Under the pieces are notes generated by a model, which was given only the letters and a program-made list of their open reading frames with translations, had not been told where the DNA came from and did not search any database. From an uncultured Candidatus Saccharibacteria bacterium (lineage in GTDB: Bacteria > Patescibacteriota > Minisyncoccia > Phycocordibacterales > CAZTPW01), in assembly GCA_964615725.1 (NCBI GenBank), contig CAZTPW010000002.1, forward strand, positions 5,656 to 69,655: 64,000 nt of DNA. Direction: 5' to 3'. Positions 6,686-56,459 of this stretch are shown piece by piece; the first letter of the stretch is position 1, and each line of letters opens with the position of its first letter. The position numbers were made by a program, and so were the translations under genes.

Positions 6686-6853
6686 AGTTGAAAGTATAGA
6701 CTGGTTTGATAATTAGACAAGGCTAAATCATGAAAGGGATTCGGTCACGGATAATTTTCTCGCCGTCGCTCGAAAATTTCCGCGACCCCGCCTCGCGGTT
6801 CGTCCTGCTAGACTCACAATCGCTGCGGCTTTCTCATCTACCCCCTCTTCTCG

Positions 6854-6899
6854 ACGAACAAAAAATGTCTCACAATTTTGTGAGACATTTTTTGTTCGT
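6854..6899. repeat. perfect 46-nt palindrome (23-bp stem, AATT centre) abutting the tRNA-Ser 3' end
   Basis: acgaacaaaaaatgtctcacaa|ttgtgagacattttttgttcgt is perfectly self-complementary. On the minus strand it begins at the encoded CCA of tRNA-Ser. It is a likely transcript-end hairpin/terminator or a protein-binding palindrome. Confidence 0.6.
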
Positions 6900-6988
6900 G
6901 GCGGAAGGGGGGGGATTCGAACCCCCGAGGCCGTTTAAAGCCTACAGCTTTAGCAAAGCTGCACGATAGACCGCTCTGACACCCCTCC
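6899..6988 (-). tRNA. tRNA-Ser, anticodon GCU (type II, long variable arm)
   Basis: Minus-strand read. Acceptor GGAGGGG/CCCTTCC (one G-U pair). Anticodon stem CAGCT/AGCTG with loop TTGCTAA (anticodon GCU). Long variable arm AGGC...GCCT. T-arm GGGGG-TTCGAAT-CCCCC. Discriminator G with encoded CCA. The D-arm pairing could not be resolved unambiguously by eye. Confidence 0.75.
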
Positions 6989-38353: not shown

Positions 38354-38424
38354 TGCCGGATCGTCTAAAGGTAGGACACCGCTCTCTGAAAGCGGTAATT
38401 TTGGTTCGATTCCAAGTCCGGCAG
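38354..38424 (+). tRNA. tRNA-Gln, anticodon CUG
   Basis: U1-A72 acceptor (TGCCGGA/TCCGGCA) typical of bacterial tRNA-Gln. D-arm GTCT-AAAGGTA-GGAC. Anticodon stem CCGCT/AGCGG with loop CTCTGAA. T-arm TTTGG-TTCGATT-CCAAG. Discriminator G. Confidence 0.8.
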
Positions 38425-38603
38425 CACGAAGCTCGTTGAAACGAGCGAGTTCGCAGGAAGCTTTATGCTTGAGCATAAAGCGGCTTGGAATCGAACGCCG
38501 GAGCGATGTCGAGCTAGTAAGCGAGACCGCGAGGCGGTGCCCAGCCCTCACTGAGCGTCGGCGAGGTGAGAGGCGAGGGCGATTCCAATTCTCACGAAAA
38601 TAT

Positions 38604-39113
38604 ATGGATACACTCTCAGAAAAAATATTAAATAGACGTATGGTTAAGCTTTTTATCAGATCATGTTTTGAATCGATGGAAATTCTTTCTAAACATCAAT
38701 CTAGTGCCAGTTACCATCTTCCTTACTATTACTTAGCACAAGCTATTCTTGAGTTGTGTCCAAAATTAATTCTTATATCAAAGTTAGAAGGTGAAGGTTT
38801 GTCTGGTGATAATATTAAAAAAGAATTAATGAAGTATGGACATGATCTTGAAAAACTCTTTTCAAATGTGGATATTAAATCAAAATATAATCAAGTTGGT
38901 GGTATAAAAGTTACTAAAGTTACCGAGGAGAATAAAAATTTTTATTACGAATTTGAGACGTTTTCCCCCAAAAAAAAGATTATGATCTATGATTCAGAAT
39001 CTCTTAAATACGGGCTTCTTTCAAACAAGGTTAATATCAGTTACGTTGGTTATCAGTTTAATGATCTTCTTGAACTCTGTAGTATGGTAAGCGATGCTTC
39101 TTTTATTAAATAA
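38604..39113 (+). CDS. hypothetical protein (AT-rich, foreign-looking)
   Basis: Start trimmed to the ATG at 38604 (MDTLSEKIL...). The ORF-track N-terminal extension from 38436 runs through the GC-rich spacer and abuts the tRNA. 169 aa, no confident domain. Confidence 0.5.
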
Positions 39114-39118
39114 TCTAC

Positions 39119-39469
39119 ATGCTTAAAGAAAACCTCTACGCAACAAGTTTCTCAAAAGTGTACCCATACTATATTGCCAAAGCAGAAAGGAAAGGTCGTA
39201 CCAAGGCAGAAGTTGACCAGATTATTTGTTGGCTCACCGGCTACACGCACAAGCAATTTGAAAAGCACTTGGAGAAGGGTACCGATTTCAAGACCTTCTA
39301 TCTCAAAGCCACAAAACCCAACCCTAAAAGGAAGCTCATTAAAGGTGTAGTCTGTGGCGTTCGCATCGAAGAAATCACCGACCGAGTGATGCGCGAAATC
39401 CGCTATCTCGACAAACTCATTGACGAACTTGCAAAAGGGAAGAAGATGGAGGCTATCCTGCGCGCGTAG
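39119..39469 (+). CDS. DUF2200 family protein
   Basis: 116 aa. The N-terminal sequence [32 protein letters not shown] matches the conserved DUF2200 core. Confidence 0.65.
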
Positions 39470-39523
39470 CCGCCTTGTATAATAGGGTTATCCGTAGCAA
39501 GATATGCTTTCAAAATCATTACT

Positions 39524-40195
39524 ATGAAAAATCGATACAACAACCTATTAAGTAAGTATAATAAGAAAATCTTAGCGCTTTGCCCCTATAACCCTTTTTT
39601 GTTTACTCTTAACGCGTTAGAGATTCAGAAGATTCATCACCCAACCATGAGAATACTTGAGGTTGGTTCTGGTGAAGGTGATTCAGCATTACCAATTCTA
39701 CAGACCACCACTGCAAAGCTCGATCTCCTCGATGTTTCAGAAGAGATGATTGCAACTTCAAAAAACACACTTCAGTCTTATAAAGAAAGGGTCAATTTTA
39801 TATGCGAAGATGCCCTTATTTATTTAAAAAAGGCAGATCCTTATGATCTGATCTATTCGGCTTGGACAATTCATAATTTTCCTCAGAAAGATAAGAAGGT
39901 TCTCCTCCAGGAAATGTATTCAAATTTAAAGTCAGGTGGCACCCTTATGATTTTGGACAAGGTGTATCAGGATAATAATCGTGAAGATTTTTTGCAGCGA
40001 CAAAATAATCGATATAAAAATTACCTCGATAAGGAACTTGCCAATGCGATTATTGAGCACGAGATCGAAGATGCTACAGATGAATATAGACTTGATGAAA
40101 CATCTTTTTCCACACTTCTCAAATCTATTGGCTTTCGAAGTGTCGATAGTATCGATCGAATTGAAAGAGATTGTTTGATACGAGCAGTCAAGTAA
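39524..40195 (+). CDS. class I SAM-dependent methyltransferase (AT-rich)
   Basis: Motif I ILEVGSGEGDSA. Motif post-I LDLLDVSEEM. 223 aa, ~33% GC. Confidence 0.7.
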   Translation: MKNRYNNLLSKYNKKILALCPYNPFLFTLNALEIQKIHHPTMRILEVGSGEGDSALPILQTTTAKLDLLDVSEEMIATSKNTLQSYKERVNFICEDALIYLKKADPYDLIYSAWTIHNFPQKDKKVLLQEMYSNLKSGGTLMILDKVYQDNNREDFLQRQNNRYKNYLDKELANAIIEHEIEDATDEYRLDETSFSTLLKSIGFRSVDSIDRIERDCLIRAVK

Positions 40196-40210
40196 CCTTA
40201 TTAAAAAACC

Positions 40211-40609
40211 ATGATCCACATACGCTACAAACTCAACATATCACCTCACCACGGAATCGGTCTCTTTGCAGATGAAGATCTCAAAGCTGGTCAACTCGTC
40301 TATACAGCAAGTCCTCTCCTTGATGTAAATATCACAGAGGAGCAATTTGCGTCACTTCACGAAAAAGAAAAGGAAGAAATTCGTTGGTGGGGTTTTAAAA
40401 TTGAAGACAAAGGAGTTTGGCATGTCGATTTTGATGTATCAAAATTCATTAATCACTCATACACACCAACACTCACGCAAAGTCCGGACCATACTGATGC
40501 ATATCTTGTTACAACACGTGAGGTGAAAAGTGGGGAAGAACTCACGCAAAATTATTTAGAATTCGAATCTCCTGAAGATTTGAAGCGTAGAGGCATACCA
40601 GTCAAGTAA
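40211..40609 (+). CDS. SET domain-containing protein (putative protein-lysine methyltransferase)
   Basis: 132 aa with SET signatures: an NHS[CY]xPN-like INHSYTPTL and a C-terminal GEELTQNY (compare GEELtfdY). Confidence 0.6.
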   Translation: MIHIRYKLNISPHHGIGLFADEDLKAGQLVYTASPLLDVNITEEQFASLHEKEKEEIRWWGFKIEDKGVWHVDFDVSKFINHSYTPTLTQSPDHTDAYLVTTREVKSGEELTQNYLEFESPEDLKRRGIPVK

Positions 40610-40645
40610 CACATCGCACCACCTCTCCCATGCTAAAATAAACCC

Positions 40646-41218
40646 ATGAAAGAAACGATTGCAATCATTGCGGCGGTTCTTGCTTTTATCGGCAATATTT
40701 CCTACCTCATTGATAGTGTGAAGGGTAGAATACAACCTCACCCGTATACATGGTTTATTTGGTCTATTGTTTCGATGACCACTTTTTTCGGTGGCTTGAT
40801 GAAGGGTGCTGGTATTGGTGCGCTTCCCACAGGCGTTGCCGAAATGTTTACCGTCATGATCTTTTTCTTTTCACTCAAAAATCTCTTCAAAAAAAGCGCT
40901 GGCCCTATCCGCAAAGTTGACCATTATTATCTCGCAGCCTGCCTCCTCGGCCTCGTGCCTTGGGTAATGACCAAAGACCCAACTGTATCAGTCGTGATCG
41001 TTGTCTTGATTGATATCGTCGCTTTCATTCCAACACTTCGCAAGACATGGGCAAACCCACACACCGAAAAGCCAACGCTCTATCAGATGAATGTTTTGCG
41101 TCACATCATGACGTTGTTCTCACTGCAAACCTACAACATTGCCACCACCATTCACTCAATTGCTATGATTTGCACAAATACTCTCATGACCTTTTTTATC
41201 AACCGAAAACGAGTATAA
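40646..41218 (+). CDS. hypothetical polytopic membrane protein
   Basis: 190 aa with ~5 hydrophobic helices. Confidence 0.5.
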   Translation: MKETIAIIAAVLAFIGNISYLIDSVKGRIQPHPYTWFIWSIVSMTTFFGGLMKGAGIGALPTGVAEMFTVMIFFFSLKNLFKKSAGPIRKVDHYYLAACLLGLVPWVMTKDPTVSVVIVVLIDIVAFIPTLRKTWANPHTEKPTLYQMNVLRHIMTLFSLQTYNIATTIHSIAMICTNTLMTFFINRKRV

Positions 41219-41227
41219 TGCTGATCT

Positions 41228-41758
41228 ATGAACTCACCACACCCAAAACAATTTCTCGTGATTATTGAAGGGCCAATGGGAGCCGGGAAGACTACGATCG
41301 GCAATTTTTTACGAAAAGACCTCAAACGCACCGCGATCCTCAGTACTGACATGATTAAGTATTTTCTCACTGATTTTGAACGAGGGGAGAGGGACAATGC
41401 AATCACAGCCGCCGTCCTTTTGAGTATGTGTCGAGAGTATGCAAGGCAGGGAATCAATATCGTACTTGCACAAGGTTTTTGGAACAAAGAATTCGTTGTG
41501 CCATACAAAAAACTCGCTGAAGAATATGGTATGAAATTTTTTGGGTATGAGCTCGAAGCACCAAAAGAATTTCTGATGGAGCGTGTAAAGAATCGACCCC
41601 GATCTGAATTTGCCAAAACACCTCTTACTGATGAAATCATCTTGCGGAACCTCAAGAACTGGGAAGATAATCGATATCACCTCGGCAAAGTTTTTGATGT
41701 TACAAAGATGAACTCTGAGGAGATTGCCAAGGTTATTCTTAAAGACCTCACATCATAA
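41228..41758 (+). CDS. P-loop NTPase/kinase (AAA_33 / chloramphenicol-phosphotransferase-like or zeta-toxin-like fold)
   Basis: Walker A IIEGPMGAGKTTIG near the N-terminus. 176 aa, the size of small-molecule/nucleotide kinases. Confidence 0.6.
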   Translation: MNSPHPKQFLVIIEGPMGAGKTTIGNFLRKDLKRTAILSTDMIKYFLTDFERGERDNAITAAVLLSMCREYARQGINIVLAQGFWNKEFVVPYKKLAEEYGMKFFGYELEAPKEFLMERVKNRPRSEFAKTPLTDEIILRNLKNWEDNRYHLGKVFDVTKMNSEEIAKVILKDLTS

Positions 41759-41760
41759 CC

Positions 41761-42132
41761 ATGAAAGCCCCGCATTCAATCCAAGACTATATCAGGCTCT
41801 ACCCGGTTGCCACTCAGAAAAAGTTGCGTGAACTTCGAGCTACGATCAAAAAGGTTGCACCGAAAAGTGTCGAATCAATCGCTTACGGTATGCCATCATT
41901 TAAACAGCATAAATATCTTGTGCATTTTGCTGCGTATAACAATCACATCGGATTCTACCCAACACCTTCCGCGATTAAGGTCTTTGCCAAAGAGCTATCA
42001 CGCTATGTAACATCAAAAGGGGCTGTGCAGTTTCCCCTCGATGAGAAGCTTCCGCTCGGGCTGATCAAGCGAATTGTGAAATATCGGGTTGGGGAGGATC
42101 TTGTGCAAGCTAAAAAACAAGAAAAACACTAG
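41761..42132 (+). CDS. DUF1801 (YdhG-like) domain protein
   Basis: 123 aa with the characteristic AYGMPSF...LVHFAAYNNHIGFYP core. Confidence 0.6.
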   Translation: MKAPHSIQDYIRLYPVATQKKLRELRATIKKVAPKSVESIAYGMPSFKQHKYLVHFAAYNNHIGFYPTPSAIKVFAKELSRYVTSKGAVQFPLDEKLPLGLIKRIVKYRVGEDLVQAKKQEKH

Positions 42133-42246
42133 GGTTTTTATATTGACAAAAATATAAAAATGTGCTAGGGTCTTTAGCAGCATGCTTACCCTCTAAGGTT
42201 TCTTGGTAGGGAGAAATAGGCATAAAACCGCACACTCAAAACCCTT

Positions 42247-43053
42247 ATGAAAAAGTTGTTTGCTGGGATCATCCTGGCTTTTCTCCTCTCGAATTCACTC
42301 ACTGCTCAGACCAACACCAACAGTCCGTTGAGTTACAACGCCGGTGTCATCTTGATGAGCAAATACTACGGGACGATTTTTGGGGGGACGTTTTACAACG
42401 GCCCCATGTCCTTCTGGGATGCCAACGCGGTGTACAAAAATCGCTTTGGTGATTTCACTGCCACAATCATGGCGGGGCAAAAGCTTGACCGCCTGAATAC
42501 CTACAACGTTGACGGCGGCACCGAGTACGATGCCGGCTTCGACCAGACCTTCACGTTCGGTGGGCCGAAATACCCAATCAAGCTCGACGTCGGCTGCTTG
42601 TATCTTTTTGTCACCGACCTCGGCAAGACTCACGACGACTTCTTTGACGAGACCATTCGCATCGACTTTCCCATTCGCGCTGATCGCAAGGATGGTCCGC
42701 TGGTCCAACCCTACTATCAGATTTTCCATTACCACTATGTGGGGGATGGACTGAAAGATGGGGGATGGATTAGCTACGCCGGACTCATCCGCGACCAGAA
42801 GCTCGGTCTCCATTTGTTTGGTAACGAGCTGAAGCTTCGCTTCGACTATCGCATGGGCATCAACCTCGGTGTCCTTGGAAGTAAACCGGGGATTGAATAC
42901 CATCGCTGGTCTTTGTCACTACCGATCACCAAGGGGAAATGGACATTCACCCCCGAGGTGCTCGCTCAGATACCGGGCGGTCGAAATCAAACTTGGGTGA
43001 CCGAGAAGAACGAAAACTTCTACGGGAACCTGAGCATTCGCTACAACTTTTGA
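42247..43053 (+). CDS. outer-membrane-protein-like beta-barrel protein (GC-rich, likely foreign)
   Basis: Signal peptide MKKLFAGIILAFLLSNSLTAQ. Alternating amphipathic beta-strand pattern. C-terminal ...LSIRYNF (aromatic-x-Phe beta-signal). ~57% GC versus ~46% background. Upstream TTGACA-N17-TAGGGT promoter-like element. Confidence 0.6.
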   Translation: MKKLFAGIILAFLLSNSLTAQTNTNSPLSYNAGVILMSKYYGTIFGGTFYNGPMSFWDANAVYKNRFGDFTATIMAGQKLDRLNTYNVDGGTEYDAGFDQTFTFGGPKYPIKLDVGCLYLFVTDLGKTHDDFFDETIRIDFPIRADRKDGPLVQPYYQIFHYHYVGDGLKDGGWISYAGLIRDQKLGLHLFGNELKLRFDYRMGINLGVLGSKPGIEYHRWSLSLPITKGKWTFTPEVLAQIPGGRNQTWVTEKNENFYGNLSIRYNF

Positions 43054-46093: not shown

Positions 46094-46150
46094 AGGAGTA
46101 GTATTGATTTGTTAAGGAACTATTTCCCTGGACGAGGGAATGAGGAAAAG

Positions 46151-46375
46151 AAAAATCCCGACTTTCGTCCAGTCGGGATTTTTCTTCAAAGAATAGATGA
46201 TAGGAAATTAACCCTTCATAGAACAAGAACAATCACGACTAGGCGCAAGATACGCACATGGTGTATACGCAGAAAGAGATCCCTGAACGATAGTTCGGGC
46301 CTTTTTCCAGATATGCGTGATGTTCTTTGTGTTGTTCACGTGTAAAATAATAGCTTATTTGAGCCATTCTGTCAA
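46151..46375 (-). promoter_or_regulatory. long 5' leader of the MFS gene: strong sigma70 promoter plus intrinsic terminator (attenuator/riboswitch candidate)
   Basis: On the minus strand: TTGACA (complement of 46370-46375), a 17-nt spacer and TATTAT (46347-46352). About 150 nt downstream lies AAAAATCCCGACT-GGACGAAAG-TCGGGATTTTTCTTTT (46151-46186), a perfect intrinsic terminator ~60 nt before the MFS ATG. A second hairpin is at 46292-46320. Tiny ORFs MCVSCA* and MKG* lie in the leader. Confidence 0.5.
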
Positions 46376-46764: not shown

Positions 46765-46807
46765 GTTATCCACGCCACAAAATACTCAGGTTTGGTATAC
46801 TAGCACC

Positions 46808-47434
46808 ATGAATCATCCATTGAAAAAAGCACTTGTAGTCCTTCTCGTCATTGTGGTAGGGCTGGTATTTTATTCATTTATAGCAAAATACACCGCGCTT
46901 CAGCTTCCTGATTTCTCATTCCAAAAATCTGAAACAGAGATTATTGAAATGATGGGGAATCGTGCCGTAAAAGCTCTCAAAAATCGAGATTCAAAGACGC
47001 TCGCTCTCATGATGCATCCTCAAGTACACCTTCGATTCTCACCCTTCCCATCATTCAGTGCAGATTCCATCTCATTTTCACAAGACGAAGTCCAGAAGCT
47101 TTTTGCTGACAACCACAAGTATCTCTGGGGCTACACCGACGGCAAGGGCGATCCGATTCTTATGACGCCTCAGGAATATTACACCTCATATCTCTATGCC
47201 GTTGATTTTTCAAACGCACCTCAGAAATATTTCGCCCAACCCCAAACCTCTCGTGGCAACAATGTAAATACCATCCTCCAAACATTCCCCGGAGCGCGTG
47301 TGGCAGAATTCTATTTCCCTGGATTCAATCCAGAATATGAAGGTATGGATTGGAAGAGTCTTCTCATCATCTTTGCTCCGTCGGGCGGTAAATGGTTCCT
47401 CGTCGGTATTGCCAACAATCAGTGGGGGATTTAA
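46808..47434 (+). CDS. hypothetical membrane-anchored protein
   Basis: Start at the ATG at 46808 (MNHPLKKALVVLLVIVVGLVFY...). ~208 aa. Confidence 0.5.
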   Translation: MNHPLKKALVVLLVIVVGLVFYSFIAKYTALQLPDFSFQKSETEIIEMMGNRAVKALKNRDSKTLALMMHPQVHLRFSPFPSFSADSISFSQDEVQKLFADNHKYLWGYTDGKGDPILMTPQEYYTSYLYAVDFSNAPQKYFAQPQTSRGNNVNTILQTFPGARVAEFYFPGFNPEYEGMDWKSLLIIFAPSGGKWFLVGIANNQWGI

Positions 47435-50295: not shown

Positions 50296-50538
50296 ATGAA
50301 AATTATTGCATATATGAAAACGGGCTGCCCTTGGTGTATTGATGTCGCCAAGTTTTTTCATGAGAAAAAGATTACCTACGAAGAGCGAAATGTTACTGAG
50401 AATAAAGCCTACTTCGATGAGATGGTAAAAAAATCAGGACAAACAAAAGCTCCAACTCTCGATATTGATGGGGTAATCCTCGCAGATTCGGATAAAGAAC
50501 AAGTTGCAAACTACCTAACTTCGCGGATGAGCTCGTAG
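50296..50538 (+). CDS. glutaredoxin-like protein (NrdH/Grx family)
   Basis: 80 aa. CPWC redox motif (KTGCPWCIDV). Confidence 0.8.
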   Translation: MKIIAYMKTGCPWCIDVAKFFHEKKITYEERNVTENKAYFDEMVKKSGQTKAPTLDIDGVILADSDKEQVANYLTSRMSS

Positions 50539-51714
50539 AGCGATGACGTGGCGGATTCCATAGAGAAGGACGAATCCGAGCACGATGAAGATTCCATAAT
50601 AGCTTTCGGTAAAGTAGAGAATGATCGTTGCGATAATCGGCGCAATACAATACGCCCATGGTCGCATGGTTCGATATACACTCATAATATGAATGCTCGT
50701 TGGGTTGATGTGGCGGAAAAAATGAGCCTCCGATCCAATTTCAACAAGACTTGCACCAATTCGAGTGGCTACCAAAATAAGTGTCCACACTACGATGCTT
50801 TTTGATTGGATGTATGGAATGCTTGCGGTCGAGATCGCCATGCAAAGGAATCCGAGAGCGAGAATCCCTTTTTCTCGATGAGTGCGGTCGATGTATCGAC
50901 CCATCGGAATATCGAAAATAACAAAAGGAAGCAACATGATACTAAACATGATGCCAATCTGCTCCCAGCTAAATCCTATGTATTCGTGGAGATAAATAGG
51001 CGCATAGATAATCATCCACGCATAGAAAAACTGCTGAATGAATTGAATGATAAAGCTCCCCAAAACATCCTTGCTTCGCCAGATTTCAAGAACTGTTTTA
51101 AAGAAAGGGTGGCGCACATACTCAGGATCTTTGAATGTGTCGAAACGATACATAAGAATAAAAATCACGGGAATGATGAGCATTGCCGCGGCAATATAGA
51201 TGCGCCAATATTCGTCACCTTGCGTAAGGAGGAGACCAGCACCAACCTGACCCACAATCCATGCTGTATTGCCACTCGTAAGGAAAAAGCCACGAACGCG
51301 ACCCATTTCATTGTGGGTGCTCAGTTTTTCAAGAAATACGTCCATGTTGAAGTTGATCAGTGCAATCGCAATGAAACTCAACATAAAGAAGCCGATAAGG
51401 AGCCATGGCGCATCCAAGAAGGCAAGCCCCAAGAGACTTGCAAGCTCGAGAAGAAGTATGATCACGATGGTTTTGTAGTTTCCGATTTTTTTGAGAAGGC
51501 TCGGAATAAAAACAAAAGCAATGATTGTGATGACTGATGAGATGGTGTAGATCAAACCAACAGACTCTTCATTGACGAGCGTCTTGAGGAAGCTTGAGTT
51601 GATGTAAACCGGCAGGGCGCAGTGAAGGGAAAACAAAAACCCTAGGATGTACATCAAAAACTTTCCTGAGCTGAAGTGTTTATGAGTGTGGAGCTTGGAG
51701 CGATGGCCTTCCAT
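50515..51714 (-). CDS. MFS transporter
   Basis: 399 aa, ~12 TMs. Convergent 24-bp overlap with the glutaredoxin gene. N-terminal start uncertain. Confidence 0.7.
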   Translation of the reverse strand: MEGHRSKLHTHKHFSSGKFLMYILGFLFSLHCALPVYINSSFLKTLVNEESVGLIYTISSVITIIAFVFIPSLLKKIGNYKTIVIILLLELASLLGLAFLDAPWLLIGFFMLSFIAIALINFNMDVFLEKLSTHNEMGRVRGFFLTSGNTAWIVGQVGAGLLLTQGDEYWRIYIAAAMLIIPVIFILMYRFDTFKDPEYVRHPFFKTVLEIWRSKDVLGSFIIQFIQQFFYAWMIIYAPIYLHEYIGFSWEQIGIMFSIMLLPFVIFDIPMGRYIDRTHREKGILALGFLCMAISTASIPYIQSKSIVVWTLILVATRIGASLVEIGSEAHFFRHINPTSIHIMSVYRTMRPWAYCIAPIIATIILYFTESYYGIFIVLGFVLLYGIRHVIALRAHPRS

Positions 51715-51721
51715 CCCTCTA

Positions 51722-53656
51722 TTATAATTCGATAATCACCGGAATGACAATTGGCTTCTTGGCTGTCTGCTGGAAGAGGTACTTACCCACAGCGTCAGTA
51801 ATGTTGTCTTTTACGTAGTCGATGTTAATCGGCTTCATGCCACGAGTAGAATCCTCAACGGTTTTCTTGATGATGAATCGGGCTTCTCGGAGGAGTTCCT
51901 GAGATTCACGGAGATACACGAAACCTCGAGAGATGAGATCTGGGGATTTCTTGAGCTTTCCTGTCTGGGTGTCGAGGAGGGCAACGATGACGAACATACC
52001 ATCTGCTGAAAGCATTTGTCGGTCTCGAATCACTACTTCCTGCATATCACCCACAGAGAAACCATCCACCATCATATTACCAGCTGGAGCTGACTCTTTG
52101 AGGCGTACGAGTTTGGTTCCTTTGTCTCGAATTTCAACAATAGTACCGTTATCAGGAACAATGACGTGATCTTTTGGCATACCAAGGCTATATGCAAGGT
52201 CTGCGTGGAGCTTCAACATGTAGTGGTTACCGTGAATTGGCATGAAGAACTTCGAATTGATTTTCTTGTGAAGCCATTCAATTTCGCCTCGGTTGCCGTG
52301 TCCTGTTGAGTGGATGTAGACGTCTGACGTTCGGTAGTGGACGATTCGCACATTCTGACGAGCGAGATTGTCTTTGAGTTTCTGCACAGTCTTTTCATTT
52401 CCAGGAATAATTGAAGATGAAAGGAGGACGGTATCACGCTCGTTGAGCTTGATGTGCTTGTGTGACTTGGTAGCCATTCGCATAAGCGCAGCGAACTCTT
52501 CACCTTGCGCACCTGTTGAGAGGACAACCACTCGATCAGGCGGAAATGAATCCACTTCTGATGAATCAATGATCGTACCTTTTTTTACTTTCAAGATACC
52601 TGCGAGGGTAGAGATTTCGATGTTGGTCTTCATGCTTCGACCCTCAATCGCAATCTTTTTGTTGTACTTCTCACAAATCTCGATGATTTTGATCATTCGC
52701 TCGAGCTGTGAAGAGAAGGTACCAATAATGAGGCGTCCTTTGATGGTCTTGATAATAGTGTCGAGGTTGTCGTGCACGATTCGCTCTGGAGTAGAGAAGC
52801 CAGGGTTTTCGATGTTGGTTGAATCAGTCATCAAGAAAAGCGTCTTGCTGTTTGCAAACTGCTCGTATTCTTTTGCTTCCTCAGAGGTAGGCACGCCATT
52901 TTCGTGGTCGAGCTTGAAGTCTCCAGGGGTAACAATGTTTCCATACGGAGTCTCGATAATCACACCCATTGAGTCTGGGATGGTGTGGGTAACAGAGAAG
53001 AATCGCACAGGAAGGTTACCGAGTGTTACTTTGCTATCTTTCTCTACAATCTTGTAATCAATTTCTGGAAGGTGAGGGAATTCTGACTGGCGCTTTTTCA
53101 CCATGATTGCGGTGAGGTTTCGGGTGTACATTGGGGGATTTCCAATACGATCCATGATGTAAGGAATACCACCGATGTGGTCGAGGTGACCGTGGGTGAC
53201 AATAATTGCGCGAATCTTCTCCTTTCGCTCTTCGAGGTATTTTGTGTTGGGAAGAATATAGTCGATACCAGGAGTGTTGTCATCTTTGAACATGAAGCCG
53301 GCGTCAATAACGACGATGTCATTTCCATATTCAACGATAGTCATGTTTCGACCAACTTCTTCTACACCTCCAAGCGGAATGATACGAATAGCATCACCGA
53401 TTGGTGGAATGGTGTCGTTTGGTTTCTTTGGAGCGATCTTGTGATCGTTACGAGAGAATTTTCGGTCGTGGCGTGTTGATCGGACTTTGCTTGATGATCC
53501 GCCAGCTCCCGCGACGTGACCATGTGGACGTCGATCCTGGCGCGGGCCATGACCTCCACGAGTATGGTGGGGGTTGTGTGATGACGTGTGATGGCTTGTC
53601 TGTTTTGGCGCTTGTAGCGCTCCGTCTGTCTGATTGTTCTGTGTTTGTGGGTTCAT
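51722..53656 (-). CDS. rnj: ribonuclease J (metallo-beta-lactamase/beta-CASP RNase) with ~90-aa basic low-complexity N-terminal extension
   Basis: HxHxDH motif (THGHLDHIGG), beta-CASP and C-terminal domain. The N-terminus is rich in H/R/K/S/T/Q (MNPQTQNNQTDG...HHTRGGHGPRQDRRPHG...) ahead of the catalytic core. Confidence 0.9.
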   Translation of the reverse strand: MNPQTQNNQTDGALQAPKQTSHHTSSHNPHHTRGGHGPRQDRRPHGHVAGAGGSSSKVRSTRHDRKFSRNDHKIAPKKPNDTIPPIGDAIRIIPLGGVEEVGRNMTIVEYGNDIVVIDAGFMFKDDNTPGIDYILPNTKYLEERKEKIRAIIVTHGHLDHIGGIPYIMDRIGNPPMYTRNLTAIMVKKRQSEFPHLPEIDYKIVEKDSKVTLGNLPVRFFSVTHTIPDSMGVIIETPYGNIVTPGDFKLDHENGVPTSEEAKEYEQFANSKTLFLMTDSTNIENPGFSTPERIVHDNLDTIIKTIKGRLIIGTFSSQLERMIKIIEICEKYNKKIAIEGRSMKTNIEISTLAGILKVKKGTIIDSSEVDSFPPDRVVVLSTGAQGEEFAALMRMATKSHKHIKLNERDTVLLSSSIIPGNEKTVQKLKDNLARQNVRIVHYRTSDVYIHSTGHGNRGEIEWLHKKINSKFFMPIHGNHYMLKLHADLAYSLGMPKDHVIVPDNGTIVEIRDKGTKLVRLKESAPAGNMMVDGFSVGDMQEVVIRDRQMLSADGMFVIVALLDTQTGKLKKSPDLISRGFVYLRESQELLREARFIIKKTVEDSTRGMKPINIDYVKDNITDAVGKYLFQQTAKKPIVIPVIIEL

Positions 53657-53681
53657 AAATGTTATTAATTGTTATGTAATT

Positions 53682-55424
53682 TTATTTCCAAATATTTTCT
53701 GTTTCTATATACCATTTCTCAATATCTCCAAATCGTTCGTTCTGTTCGGTAATGTTTTTGAAGGTTACATTCTGAATCTTTTTTGGATAGAGATAGATGA
53801 TGTCTGGCGCGTAGAGGAAGAAGGCAGGAATATCTTTCTGGATTTCATCATCGAATTTGATGAGGAGGTCTTTCTGGGCTTTGGTACTTGAGGCTGAGCG
53901 GGCATTTTCGAGGAGGGTGTCGGCTTTGCTGTTTGCATAGAGCGCCATATTGAGTCCTGGATGATTGCGCTCCGATGAGTGCCAGAAACTATAGAGATCG
54001 AGATTTCTTCCAACAACTTCTCCAAAAAGGAATGCTTGATACTTTCGAGGCTGGAGGACGTTTTGATTGAGGTCGCCTTGCTCGAACACCTTGATGTCAA
54101 CTTTTGCACCGAGCTTCTTCCACTGATCTTTGAGAATGAGGGCGGTTTTTACAAGGTCAGAAGCGTTGGTGGTAGAGAGTGAAAAGGCGAGTGGTACTGT
54201 TTCTTTCTTGGCTTTCTTTTCGTAATATCCATCGACATTCTTCTTCCATCCAGCTTTTTCAAGAAGTGCCTGAGCTTTCTTCAAGCGTTCTTCTGGGGTG
54301 CTGGTACTGTGATGGGTAGCCTCTGTGTTAAAGAATGGATATGGAAGGGGGCTGTCGACGGGTACACCATAGCCGTTCAAAACCTCACTCACGATAACAT
54401 CTTTGCTGATAGTCATTTCGAGCGCCTGTCGCACTTCATGCTCAAGGAAAATTGGTGCCTGACTCTGATTGAGGAAAACTGCAAAGGTGCGAGGAAGGGT
54501 GCTTTCAATCACCATTGATCGGTCAAGGTTGAAATCTTTTGTATTGTCAGGTGATGGAGTGATAAAGCTATCAATTTCCTCTTTTTCATAGGCATCAAGT
54601 GCGGCGCTTTCATCACCAAAAAACTTCAACTCAATTTTTGAAATATAAGGAGTGCCGAGCGCGTATTCCTCAAAAGGTTTGAGGGTATATGAAACAGGAA
54701 TACCATCCGCATCCTTTTCCACGGATGAGATTCGATATGGTCCACTACCAACTTTTGGCTCGCTATTAGCGAGAGATGAGGTGAATTGCTCTACAGAAAG
54801 GTTGCCCCAGACTGCATGGGGGAGAATACCAAGGGTAGTGCTCTCAAGAAAGGGCGCGTAAGGTTGCTTGAGAGTAAATCGAATTTCTCGATCATCAACC
54901 CTTTCTACCTCAACACCTTCCCAGTGAGCTCGGCGTGGACTCTTGAGTGCAGGGTCGAGCACTTTTTTAATCGTAGATTCTACATCTCGAGTGGTGAGGG
55001 GGCTTCCATCATGGAAGGTGAGACCTGCTTTAAGTCTAAAGGTGTAGACTTTTCCATCAGGTGAAATGGTGTAGCTTTCAGCAAGCTCTGGTACAAGGTT
55101 GCCAAGTGAGTCGGCTTTCATGAGACCGGCATACACAAGGCTCGTAACGTCTCGATCCACATCAAATGATGCCAAAACCGGGTTTACTGCATGAGGAACA
55201 CCAACAATTCCCTCAATAAACGATCCTCCTTGAGCGGGTACAGGGGTGAGAAGGTAGCCATTGAGTCGCACAATGATAGCTGCAGAGACAATACAAAGCA
55301 CAATTACCGCTGTCCAAAAGACAGATTTTTCCGTGGTACTGAATGATTGTATAAGAGAGTCAATCTTTTGATTGAGAGAACGCCCGTAATGACGAGCAAA
55401 AAGAGAATTGAGAAATGCTTTCAC
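53682..55424 (-). CDS. ABC transporter substrate-binding protein (family 5, peptide/nickel type), membrane-anchored
   Basis: 580 aa with an N-terminal TM anchor and an SBP_bac_5 architecture. Confidence 0.8.
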   Translation of the reverse strand: MKAFLNSLFARHYGRSLNQKIDSLIQSFSTTEKSVFWTAVIVLCIVSAAIIVRLNGYLLTPVPAQGGSFIEGIVGVPHAVNPVLASFDVDRDVTSLVYAGLMKADSLGNLVPELAESYTISPDGKVYTFRLKAGLTFHDGSPLTTRDVESTIKKVLDPALKSPRRAHWEGVEVERVDDREIRFTLKQPYAPFLESTTLGILPHAVWGNLSVEQFTSSLANSEPKVGSGPYRISSVEKDADGIPVSYTLKPFEEYALGTPYISKIELKFFGDESAALDAYEKEEIDSFITPSPDNTKDFNLDRSMVIESTLPRTFAVFLNQSQAPIFLEHEVRQALEMTISKDVIVSEVLNGYGVPVDSPLPYPFFNTEATHHSTSTPEERLKKAQALLEKAGWKKNVDGYYEKKAKKETVPLAFSLSTTNASDLVKTALILKDQWKKLGAKVDIKVFEQGDLNQNVLQPRKYQAFLFGEVVGRNLDLYSFWHSSERNHPGLNMALYANSKADTLLENARSASSTKAQKDLLIKFDDEIQKDIPAFFLYAPDIIYLYPKKIQNVTFKNITEQNERFGDIEKWYIETENIWK

Positions 55425-55475
55425 AAATTTGAGGAAATGGCGAACATGCCAGTTCCGAAATTACACTAGAAATAA

Positions 55476-55709
55476 TTATCGAGTAAGCGCAAAGATTGCA
55501 CTTGCCACGAAGAGAACACTCAACACAATCGTGCCATTGAACAAGAATTTTTCGAAGCCTCGTCGAGTGTGGAATCCGGAGCCGAGGTTATTGTTTTCAC
55601 CGAAAGCACCGCCTAGGCCTGCGCTTGATCGCTGGAACAATACCGCTGCCACGAGAAGCACTGCCAAGACTATCTGTATGTACGGTAGTACGTGGGTAAG
55701 AGTATTCAT
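55476..55709 (-). CDS. secG: preprotein translocase subunit SecG
   Basis: 77 aa with two TMs around a Gly-rich loop (SAGLGGAFGENNNLGSG), typical of SecG. Confidence 0.8.
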   Translation of the reverse strand: MNTLTHVLPYIQIVLAVLLVAAVLFQRSSAGLGGAFGENNNLGSGFHTRRGFEKFLFNGTIVLSVLFVASAIFALTR

Positions 55710-55723
55710 TACTGATCAGTATA

Positions 55724-55843
55724 GCAGAATATAGTACAAAGGCAAGTTTTTCGAGCACGGATATTTTCTTGGTAGAAAATTCCTCGTGCTCGGCTCGACA
55801 GCCTCGCAAGTCTCTCAAAACTTGCCTTTGTACTATATTCTGC
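55724..55843. repeat. 120-bp nested perfect palindrome (MITE-like) in the secG/lemA divergent intergenic region
   Basis: The outer 27-bp arms are perfect inverted repeats: gcagaatatagtacaaaggcaagtttt (55724-55750) and aaaacttgcctttgtactatattctgc (55817-55843). Inside them are inner inverted repeats cgagcacg/cgtgctcg (55752-55759/55785-55792) and attttc/gaaaat (55762-55767/55775-55780). Confidence 0.7.
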
Positions 55844-55898
55844 ACCTGATCCCTTGGTTTTATTCATTGTTTTTATTATATTTGGTATAATTCTTTCT

Positions 55899-56459
55899 AT
55901 GAAGAAAACAACGATAATTATTATTGCAGTAGTGGTTATTTTAGGACTTTGGGTTGGAGTGAAGTACAACTCTCTCGTGACTGCGCGTGAGTCGATCGAC
56001 GCACAGTGGTCACAGGTTCAGGCACAATATCAGCGACGTTTCGATCTCATTCCAAACGTTGTAAATGCTGTAAAGGGTGCTATGAAGCAAGAGACAGCCA
56101 TTTTTACTCAGCTTGCAAATGCCCGAGCACAGTATCTTTCTGCTAAAACACCAGCAGATCAGGAGGCGGCAGCTCAGTCTGGCGATCAGGCACTTTCAAA
56201 GTTTTTGGCAGTAATTGAGAATTATCCTCAGCTTAAGTCTATTGATGCTGACCGCGACCTCATTGTGGAGCTTGAAGGTACAGAAAATCGCATTGGTGTT
56301 GAGCGAAAGAAATACAACGAGACCGTAAAAGAGTACAACCTTGGAGTTTCTCGATTCCCAGGCTCTATCATTGCGGGAATCTTCAACTTCGACATAAAGG
56401 AATACCTCAAAGCGGACGCGGCGGCGCAGACAGCACCGAAAGTTGACCTCACAAACTAA
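55899..56459 (+). CDS. lemA: LemA family protein
   Basis: Start at the ATG at 55899 (MKKTTIIIIAVVVILGLWV), an N-terminal TM followed by the LemA core (YNSLVTARESIDAQWSQVQAQYQRRFDLIPN). Confidence 0.85.
   Translation: MKKTTIIIIAVVVILGLWVGVKYNSLVTARESIDAQWSQVQAQYQRRFDLIPNVVNAVKGAMKQETAIFTQLANARAQYLSAKTPADQEAAAQSGDQALSKFLAVIENYPQLKSIDADRDLIVELEGTENRIGVERKKYNETVKEYNLGVSRFPGSIIAGIFNFDIKEYLKADAAAQTAPKVDLTN

Follow-up and report, generated by a model that had tools for sequence, protein, structure and literature searches.

Small intergenic repeats such as Correia (or NEMIS) of Neisseria, RUP and ERIC measure about 100-155 bp, end in inverted repeats of approximately 26 bp, form long hairpins and may carry outward promoter elements. 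Miniature inverted-repeat transposable elements (MITEs) of the Correia type make up families of tens to hundreds of copies and are accompanied by a target duplication, which is TA for Correia. In the hybrid promoters generated by insertion sequences (ISs), an outward -35 element is located near the tip of the terminal repeat and a resident -10 element at the tip. Quasipalindromes undergo template switching; in the Ripley model, studied in Escherichia coli, one arm serves as the template from which the other arm of an imperfect inverted repeat is rewritten. The invertible elements fimS and the Bacteroides invertons are bordered by inverted repeats of 10-30 bp, enclose a promoter in a segment of about 150-400 bp or larger and are served by a recombinase. 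The looping operators O1 and O3 of lac are spaced 92 bp. A literature search returned no description of MITEs, of cruciform or looping regulators or of leaderless promoter architecture in CPR bacteria that bears on the locus presented here.

This locus is a palindrome located between the divergent genes secG and lemA in a 64-kb stretch of DNA, the whole of which was analysed and is referred to as the window. The palindrome is similar to Correia/NEMIS, RUP and ERIC in its size, terminal repeats, intergenic site, outward promoter element and hairpin. Contrary to Correia-type MITEs, it occurs once in the 64 kb, is not abutted by a duplication and was not encountered in the searched collections, and its arm is collinear with the native secG promoter of relatives. 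It also follows the geometry of IS-end hybrid promoters, with a -35 hexamer TTGCCT 16 nt from the arm tip and a -10 that begins at the tip, but neither an insertion sequence nor a transposase nor a second copy was found. The arm includes the TG of the extended -10 as well as the TCTGC that it has in common with relatives, which argues for one continuous native promoter and not for a junction. As in quasipalindrome template switching, a perfect block (27 nt) is flanked by diverged positions and could have been made locally without a mobile element; classical events, however, correct a few bases in short hairpins, whereas the copying would here have involved about 42-44 nt of promoter, over a 66-nt spacer. 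Inverted repeats in a promoter region are likewise found in fimS and the Bacteroides invertons, from which the palindrome differs by its 66-bp core, in which no promoter is predicted, by the lack of any recombinase found and by its single orientation in two assemblies. Finally, its two identical sites are 93 bp apart from centre to centre and one of them overlaps a promoter, as for lac O1-O3. In contrast to the lac operators, these sites are 27 bp long, not individually palindromic, inverted and not conserved, and have no known regulator.

Structure and genomic context of the palindrome

The perfect 27-nt inverted repeats reported in the initial annotation of this DNA were confirmed by reading the sequence, with a repeat finder and by pattern search. 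The arm sequence GCAGAATATAGTACAAAGGCAAGTTTT is read on the plus strand at the left arm and on the minus strand at the right arm (Table 1), and these two matches in the window compare with none in 100 shuffles of the window. The palindrome is the longest spaced inverted repeat of the 64 kb. Its extent had been given as 120 bp, which is exact for the perfect arms, while the symmetry is larger and reaches 55714-55851. The arms extend to 32 nt at 94% (55724-55755/55812-55843; repeat finder) and an outer 6-bp pair, GATCAG/CTGATC, is set off from them by TATA on the left and by AC on the right. The chance probability of this outer match is about 1.3% and the pair forms in all folds. The further inverted repeats claimed inside the core are both present (55752-55792) and consist of an inner stem, CGAGCACG/CGTGCTCG (55752-55759/55785-55792), and of a second pair, ATTTTC(T)/(A)GAAAAT (55763-55769/55774-55780). 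The description of the whole as a nested palindrome did not hold in the sense of one concentric structure: the core is asymmetric, since the inner hairpin is centred on 55772 and the arms on 55783.5. The element had also been said to fill almost the whole divergent promoter region. It does lie in the divergent control region but occupies 120-138 bases of an intergenic stretch of 189 (55710-55898).

The left and right copies differ in three places, all outside the 27-nt block. Neither of the arms is itself palindromic. Only spurious open reading frames (ORFs) overlap the palindrome, which is without coding capacity over its 120-138 bp. The GC content is 0.515 in the core, 0.33 in the arms and 0.21 in the flank. 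RNA folds of the region reach -70.3 and -75.1 kcal/mol on the two strands (z = -10.7 and -11.8 relative to shuffles), and the single-stranded DNA fold reaches -45.5 kcal/mol (z = -11.8 relative to shuffles). The inner hairpin was considered as an intrinsic terminator and rejected, the T-run preceding it on the plus strand and the A's following it on the minus strand; a search of IMG/VR with this hairpin gave no match. Elsewhere in the window, a 35-nt inverted repeat at 6841-6912 (86% complementary, 2-nt loop) is located directly beside a tRNA-Ser gene (6899-6988, minus strand). It has the appearance of a bidirectional terminator, its central stem being preceded by an A-run and followed by a T-run, and its outer arm extends into the tRNA-Ser end. 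A perfect 16-nt hairpin with a 7-nt loop (AAGAAAAATCCCGACT/AGTCGGGATTTTTCTT; 46148-46186), downstream of a minus-strand MFS gene, also looks like a terminator.

Table 1. Position of the features of the secG-lemA region and of promoter-bearing genes in the window
Feature	Position	Strand	Basis
secG coding sequence, 77 aa	55476..55709	-	ORF; Pfam PF03840 on the identical Logan gene
Outer 6-bp stem, left half GATCAG; secG transcript start region on the minus strand	55714..55719		Folds
Predicted secG -10 hexamer TATACT	55718..55723	-	Promoter scan
Left 27-nt arm: TG of the extended -10, spacer, -35 and upstream AAAAC on the minus strand	55724..55750		Repeat finder, promoter scan
Asymmetric core, 66 nt	55751..55816		Sequence, composition
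Inner hairpin: 8-bp GC-rich stem, 7-bp AT stem, 4-nt loop, off-centre	55752..55792		Folds
Right 27-nt arm, inverted copy of the secG -35, spacer and TG	55817..55843		Repeat finder, side-by-side print
AC (TATA in the left copy), then outer stem CTGATC (55846-55851)	55844..55851		Side-by-side print of the copies
Possible distal promoter TTCATA, 17 nt, TATAAT	55875..55903	-	Consensus scan
Predicted lemA extended -10 promoter TGgTATAAT, 7 nt before the ATG at 55899	55883..55891	+	Motif search
lemA coding sequence, 186 aa	55899..56459	+	100% match to P0001; Pfam PF04011
Genes of the window with an extended -10 near the ATG	7782, 21926, 40646, 46808, 48792, 55709 (-), 55899		

The palindrome was partly recovered in a second and independent assembly, that of Logan run SRR11567528. 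Contig L001 agrees with the window at every position of the left flank and of the first 9 nt of the left arm, and contig L050 does so from 55784 onward, which takes in the core from its midpoint, the complete right arm and the flank. The 51 nt in between (55733-55783), comprising the inner 18 nt of the left arm and the core up to its midpoint, are left unassembled. An assembly artefact was rejected, as the second assembly reproduces the junction of left flank and arm and everything from 55784 rightwards. A fold-back artefact in particular is unlikely because the junction between left arm and core is unique sequence that could not be derived from the right side. The break in the Logan assembly is not a repeat problem, since the 27-nt repeat is shorter than the Logan assembly k-mer (31); it could correspond to a drop of coverage at the hairpin or to strain heterogeneity.

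The genes on either side had been correctly named as secG (PF03840, minus strand) and lemA (PF04011, plus strand). The window also contains a type IV pilus cluster, ligA, gatCA, the genes for CTP synthase, RNase J and ribonucleotide reductase, the RNase P RNA and eight tRNAs. A tRNA-Gln gene (38354-38425) precedes the stretch of lowest GC content of the window (0.41; region 38354-42900, tRNA gene included), which holds small accessory-looking genes (DUF2200, a putative methyltransferase recognized by inspection and unassigned ORFs). This stretch may be an integrated island; no integrase was seen in it. The best protein matches of the window are to metagenome-assembled genomes (MAGs) of Parcubacteria/Paceibacterota and the host is a CPR bacterium of this group. 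Apart from the same strain in one Logan run, no close relative was present in the collections. The nearest relatives show 63% identity for LemA and 57% for SBP_bac_5, and their intergenic DNA is not alignable to the window.

Four relatives carrying secG (L045, L047, L048 and L049) were fetched via the neighbouring SBP_bac_5 gene, the product of which is 48-51% identical to that of the window. The order secG, SBP_bac_5, RNase J is kept in all four and is followed by the MFS gene in three of them, a TPM_phosphatase gene taking its place in L047. Gene order breaks exactly upstream of secG, where the relatives have groES/EL (3/4; a small ORF or an HTH gene is interposed in two of these three) or the homoserine dehydrogenase gene hom (1/4). 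The palindrome thus marks a gene-order break, the block being preceded in the relatives by groES/EL or hom and not by lemA. In the closest LemA relative (63% identity), lemA does not adjoin secG. In the window, the genes for MFS, RNase J, SBP_bac_5 and SecG (50515-55709) form the only multi-gene block of the minus strand among mostly plus-strand genes, and the palindrome is located at the right edge of this block.

The predicted secG promoter and its inverted copy

Promoters of the extended -10 leaderless type were defined by TGn followed by TAnnnT, a -35-like hexamer 16-18 nt upstream and a start codon about 6-9 nt after the -10. The predicted secG promoter has this extended -10 sigma-70 form and is composed of TTGCCT, 16 nt, TGcTATACT (55726-55718), 8 nt and ATG (in short form on the minus strand, TTGCCT...TGCTATACT). 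Its -35 occupies 55745-55740, its spacer 55739-55724 and its TG 55726-55725, all within the left arm. The left bulge of the palindrome, TATA at 55720-55723, corresponds to the first four bases of the predicted -10. We infer that secG is transcribed from the left arm, and its mRNA would be leaderless because the ATG is 8 nt downstream of the -10.

The promoters of the window and of the relatives were compared by printing them in an alignment anchored on the ATG. The succession TTGnnn, 16 or 17 nt, TGnTAnnnT, 7-9 nt and ATG was present upstream of secG in the four relatives, and a long inverted repeat was present at this promoter in none of them. The sequence TCTGCTATA, which spans the arm boundary, is common to the window and two relatives; TTCTGCTATACT is common to the window and L045, its counterpart in the secG promoter of L047 being CTCTGCTATAGT. 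Similarity of L045 and L047 to the window therefore extends without interruption from the -10 across the boundary between flank and arm and takes in outer bases of the left arm. The left arm is best read as native secG promoter DNA. At seven genes of the window (Table 1), an extended -10 (TGnTAnnnT) ends 6-8 nt upstream of the ATG and no Shine-Dalgarno sequence intervenes, which suggests that extended -10 promoters giving leaderless mRNAs are common in this Parcubacteria genome or lineage. Just upstream of one of them, that of the gene at 46808, TTATCCACG (46770-46800) resembles a DnaA box.

The gene lemA has a predicted promoter of its own in the window, and the extended -10 layout recurs at lemA of the closest LemA relative (63% identity), where TGCTATAAT precedes the ATG by 6 nt; no repeat was found upstream of lemA in this relative. 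Weak evidence, a consensus scan of AT-rich DNA in which 10 of 12 consensus positions were matched, points to a distal minus-strand promoter which, if real, would transcribe the whole palindrome into secG.

The right arm faces lemA with its own TTGCCT (55822-55827). Together with the outer CTGATC, it repeats the secG promoter in inverted orientation from about -47 to +1, the transcript start, and the two copies align as CTC[GA/TC]AAAACTTGCCTTTGTACTATATTCTGC[TATA/AC]CTGATC. The right copy is without a -10 hexamer, as AC stands in place of TATA, and the promoter scan returned no site at 55844-55851. The same scan returned no sigma-70-like promoter in the core (55751-55816).

Origin and possible functions of the palindrome

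We favour, with moderate confidence, the view that the palindrome is a single-copy and lineage-specific local inverted duplication of the native secG core promoter, placed 66 bp upstream of it. A fold-back or template-switch event would have copied the secG promoter in inverted orientation, at a place where the gene order upstream of secG was rearranged. The left arm would serve as the secG promoter, lemA would use its own TGgTATAAT promoter, and the right copy, its -10 replaced (TATA to AC), would be transcriptionally dead. Right copy and GC-richer core would most likely be a tolerated by-product. At most, they might offer RNA polymerase or a promoter-binding regulator an additional docking site or, alternatively, form a cruciform-prone stretch that could modulate secG. 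It is the collinearity of the left arm with the secG promoter of four palindrome-free relatives that argues for native DNA copied in inverted orientation and against a foreign insert. The relatives are distant, and the promoter similarity could reflect shared functional constraint, not descent. Moreover, an inverted duplication leaves the origin of the GC-richer 66-nt core unaccounted for. Counting further against it, the perfect 27-bp terminal repeat, the size of 120-138 bp and the outward -35 located 16 nt from the tip have the geometry of a MITE or of an IS end.

This geometry is part of the case for a mobile origin, in which the palindrome would be a solo MITE or an IS remnant, inserted upstream of secG, whose ends carry an outward promoter that now supplies the secG promoter. 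We regard this as possible but doubtful. Apart from its terminal repeats, size and intergenic position and from a -35 that is followed by a -10 at or just outside the arm tip, this origin agrees with a core differing in composition from the flank (GC 0.515 against 0.21) and with the absence of the element from the same position in the four relatives. The 6-mer CTGATC is found on both sides (55712-55717 and 55846-55851) as a target duplication might be, but 6 and 2 nt, respectively, separate its copies from the arms, to which no direct repeat is adjacent. The left copy moreover belongs to an 8-bp palindrome, CTGATCAG, and the match can equally be read as an inverted repeat. That no flanking target-site duplication is evident had already been stated in the initial annotation and was borne out, the flanks being CAGTATA on the left and ACCTGAT on the right. 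The label MITE-like given there was not sustained, with neither an abutting duplication nor a second copy in the 64 kb nor a transposase in the window to accompany it. The arm had no second copy in the window within three mismatches and the element left no fragment there longer than 11-14 nt. A 20-mer of the arm gave two single chance hits in 185,579 GTDB species genomes, and an 18-mer gave 31 single hits in JGI metagenomes and six in IMG/VR, which is close to chance expectation. When the whole element was compared by BLAST with all the fetched loci, the matches did not exceed 18-21 nt. BLAST at low stringency against plasmids and phages gave no match, and no cognate element with a matching arm was present in the searched collections, which do not include the source genome, as the genome scan did not return the window. 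Inspection of all ORFs, complemented by Pfam on ten unassigned ORFs, detected no transposase or recombinase in the 64-kb window. Finally, the similarity in TCTGCTATA crosses the arm boundary and the distance from the -10 to the ATG equals that of the relatives, both of which an insertion would need by coincidence. A 19-mer of the arm recurs in a hairpin of two JGI metagenome contigs, L018 (1975-2060) and L037 (3045-3135), which was rejected as a coincidence, nothing else being shared. In both contigs this hairpin is flanked on either side by telomere-like CCCTAA/TTAGGG repeats.

Another reading is that the palindrome acts on transcription at the DNA level, through paired regulator sites forming a repression loop or through a supercoiling-sensitive cruciform that would occlude the secG promoter and co-regulate lemA. 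This is unlikely in our view. The suggestion of a large cruciform or operator in the initial annotation stood as far as the fold, predicted to be stable enough for a cruciform (single-stranded DNA, -45.5 kcal/mol, z = -11.8), and the location in a divergent control region are concerned, the left arm overlapping the -35 and spacer of secG. It is also in line with the confinement of all three copy differences to positions outside the 27-nt block and with arm centres 93 bp apart, a distance that allows a repression loop. The element was not conserved, however: the comparison with relatives, proposed for detecting a conserved position, found it neither at the secG promoter of the four relatives nor at lemA of the closest LemA relative, which argues against an old conserved operator. 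Additionally, 27 perfect base pairs far exceed the need of a protein site, neither arm is palindromic, no further promoter of the window carries the arm sequence and no candidate regulator gene is adjacent. L045 has an inverted repeat of its own in divergent promoters upstream of its secG operon, which may be counted in favour of regulation. It is located between groES and the small ORF upstream of secG (L045:3241-3339) and has 17-nt arms (94% complementary) and a 65-nt spacer. Its left arm lies within the spacer of the groES promoter (TTGAAA, 17 nt, TATAAT) and its right arm overlaps a -10 of sequence TGCTATTGT. The repeats of L045 and of the window are alike in spacing and in their embedding in divergent promoters, and their sequences are unrelated. 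A more specific device, made of a promoter and a disarmed mirror copy of it, is decidedly unlikely. At a distance of 93 bp from the live secG promoter, the dead copy would attract RNA polymerase, a sigma factor or a repressor or, alternatively, the pair of copies would extrude as a cruciform.

Perfect inverted repeats of a typical switch length, in a promoter region between divergent genes, also evoke an invertible DNA switch, in which a site-specific recombinase would flip the 66-bp core between the 27-bp repeats. Such a switch is exceedingly improbable, as the scan detected no promoter in the core and as its flipping would change neither core promoter, that of secG being located in and outside the arm. 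Besides, 66 bp is very short for a recombination synapse and no recombinase was found in the window, Pfam having covered ten unassigned ORFs. L050 covers the right arm and continues for 33 nt into the core, uninterrupted at the junction; the orientation across the junction of right arm and core is identical in the window and L050, a comparison of two assemblies at the level of contigs. The very stable folds predicted on both strands, the GC-richer core and the distal promoter-like site (10/12 consensus), which could drive transcription through the element, speak for a structured RNA, either a small RNA gene or the 5' leader hairpin of a longer secG transcript started from the distal promoter (55903-55875). 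We consider this very unlikely. A scan of Rfam 15 at gathering and permissive thresholds gave no family match, and its best sub-threshold hit, the plant microRNA precursor model MIR841 (26.9 bits against a gathering score of 200), owes its score only to the long hairpin. The 27 uninterrupted Watson-Crick pairs, with no G-U pair or bulge and equal folding on both strands, are typical of a DNA repeat, and the predicted proximal promoters of leaderless type would exclude the element from the mRNAs of both genes. A 6S-like or other RNA was rejected in view of the perfect stem, symmetric on both strands, and of the lack of an Rfam signal. Likewise, a tRNA/tmRNA scan detected nothing at this locus.

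Implications for MITE annotation and for promoters of CPR bacteria

We class the palindrome with the intergenic inverted repeats or quasipalindromes of promoter origin, a kind already known. If the inverted duplication that we favour is right, it would be a clear example of a large perfect intergenic palindrome arising from native promoter DNA. A promoter-derived palindrome that can be mistaken for a mobile element would then call for caution in the annotation of MITEs in MAGs. If the palindrome were instead a MITE equipped with a promoter, or a regulator acting as a cruciform or by looping, it would join the very few described in CPR bacteria. If the device of a promoter and its disarmed copy were true, expression of secG, and possibly of lemA, would answer to supercoiling or to a regulator in a CPR bacterium with a minimal genome. 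Finally, a recurrent promoter layout is documented here for a Parcubacteria lineage, namely an extended -10 located 6-9 nt before the ATG, which would imply leaderless mRNAs.
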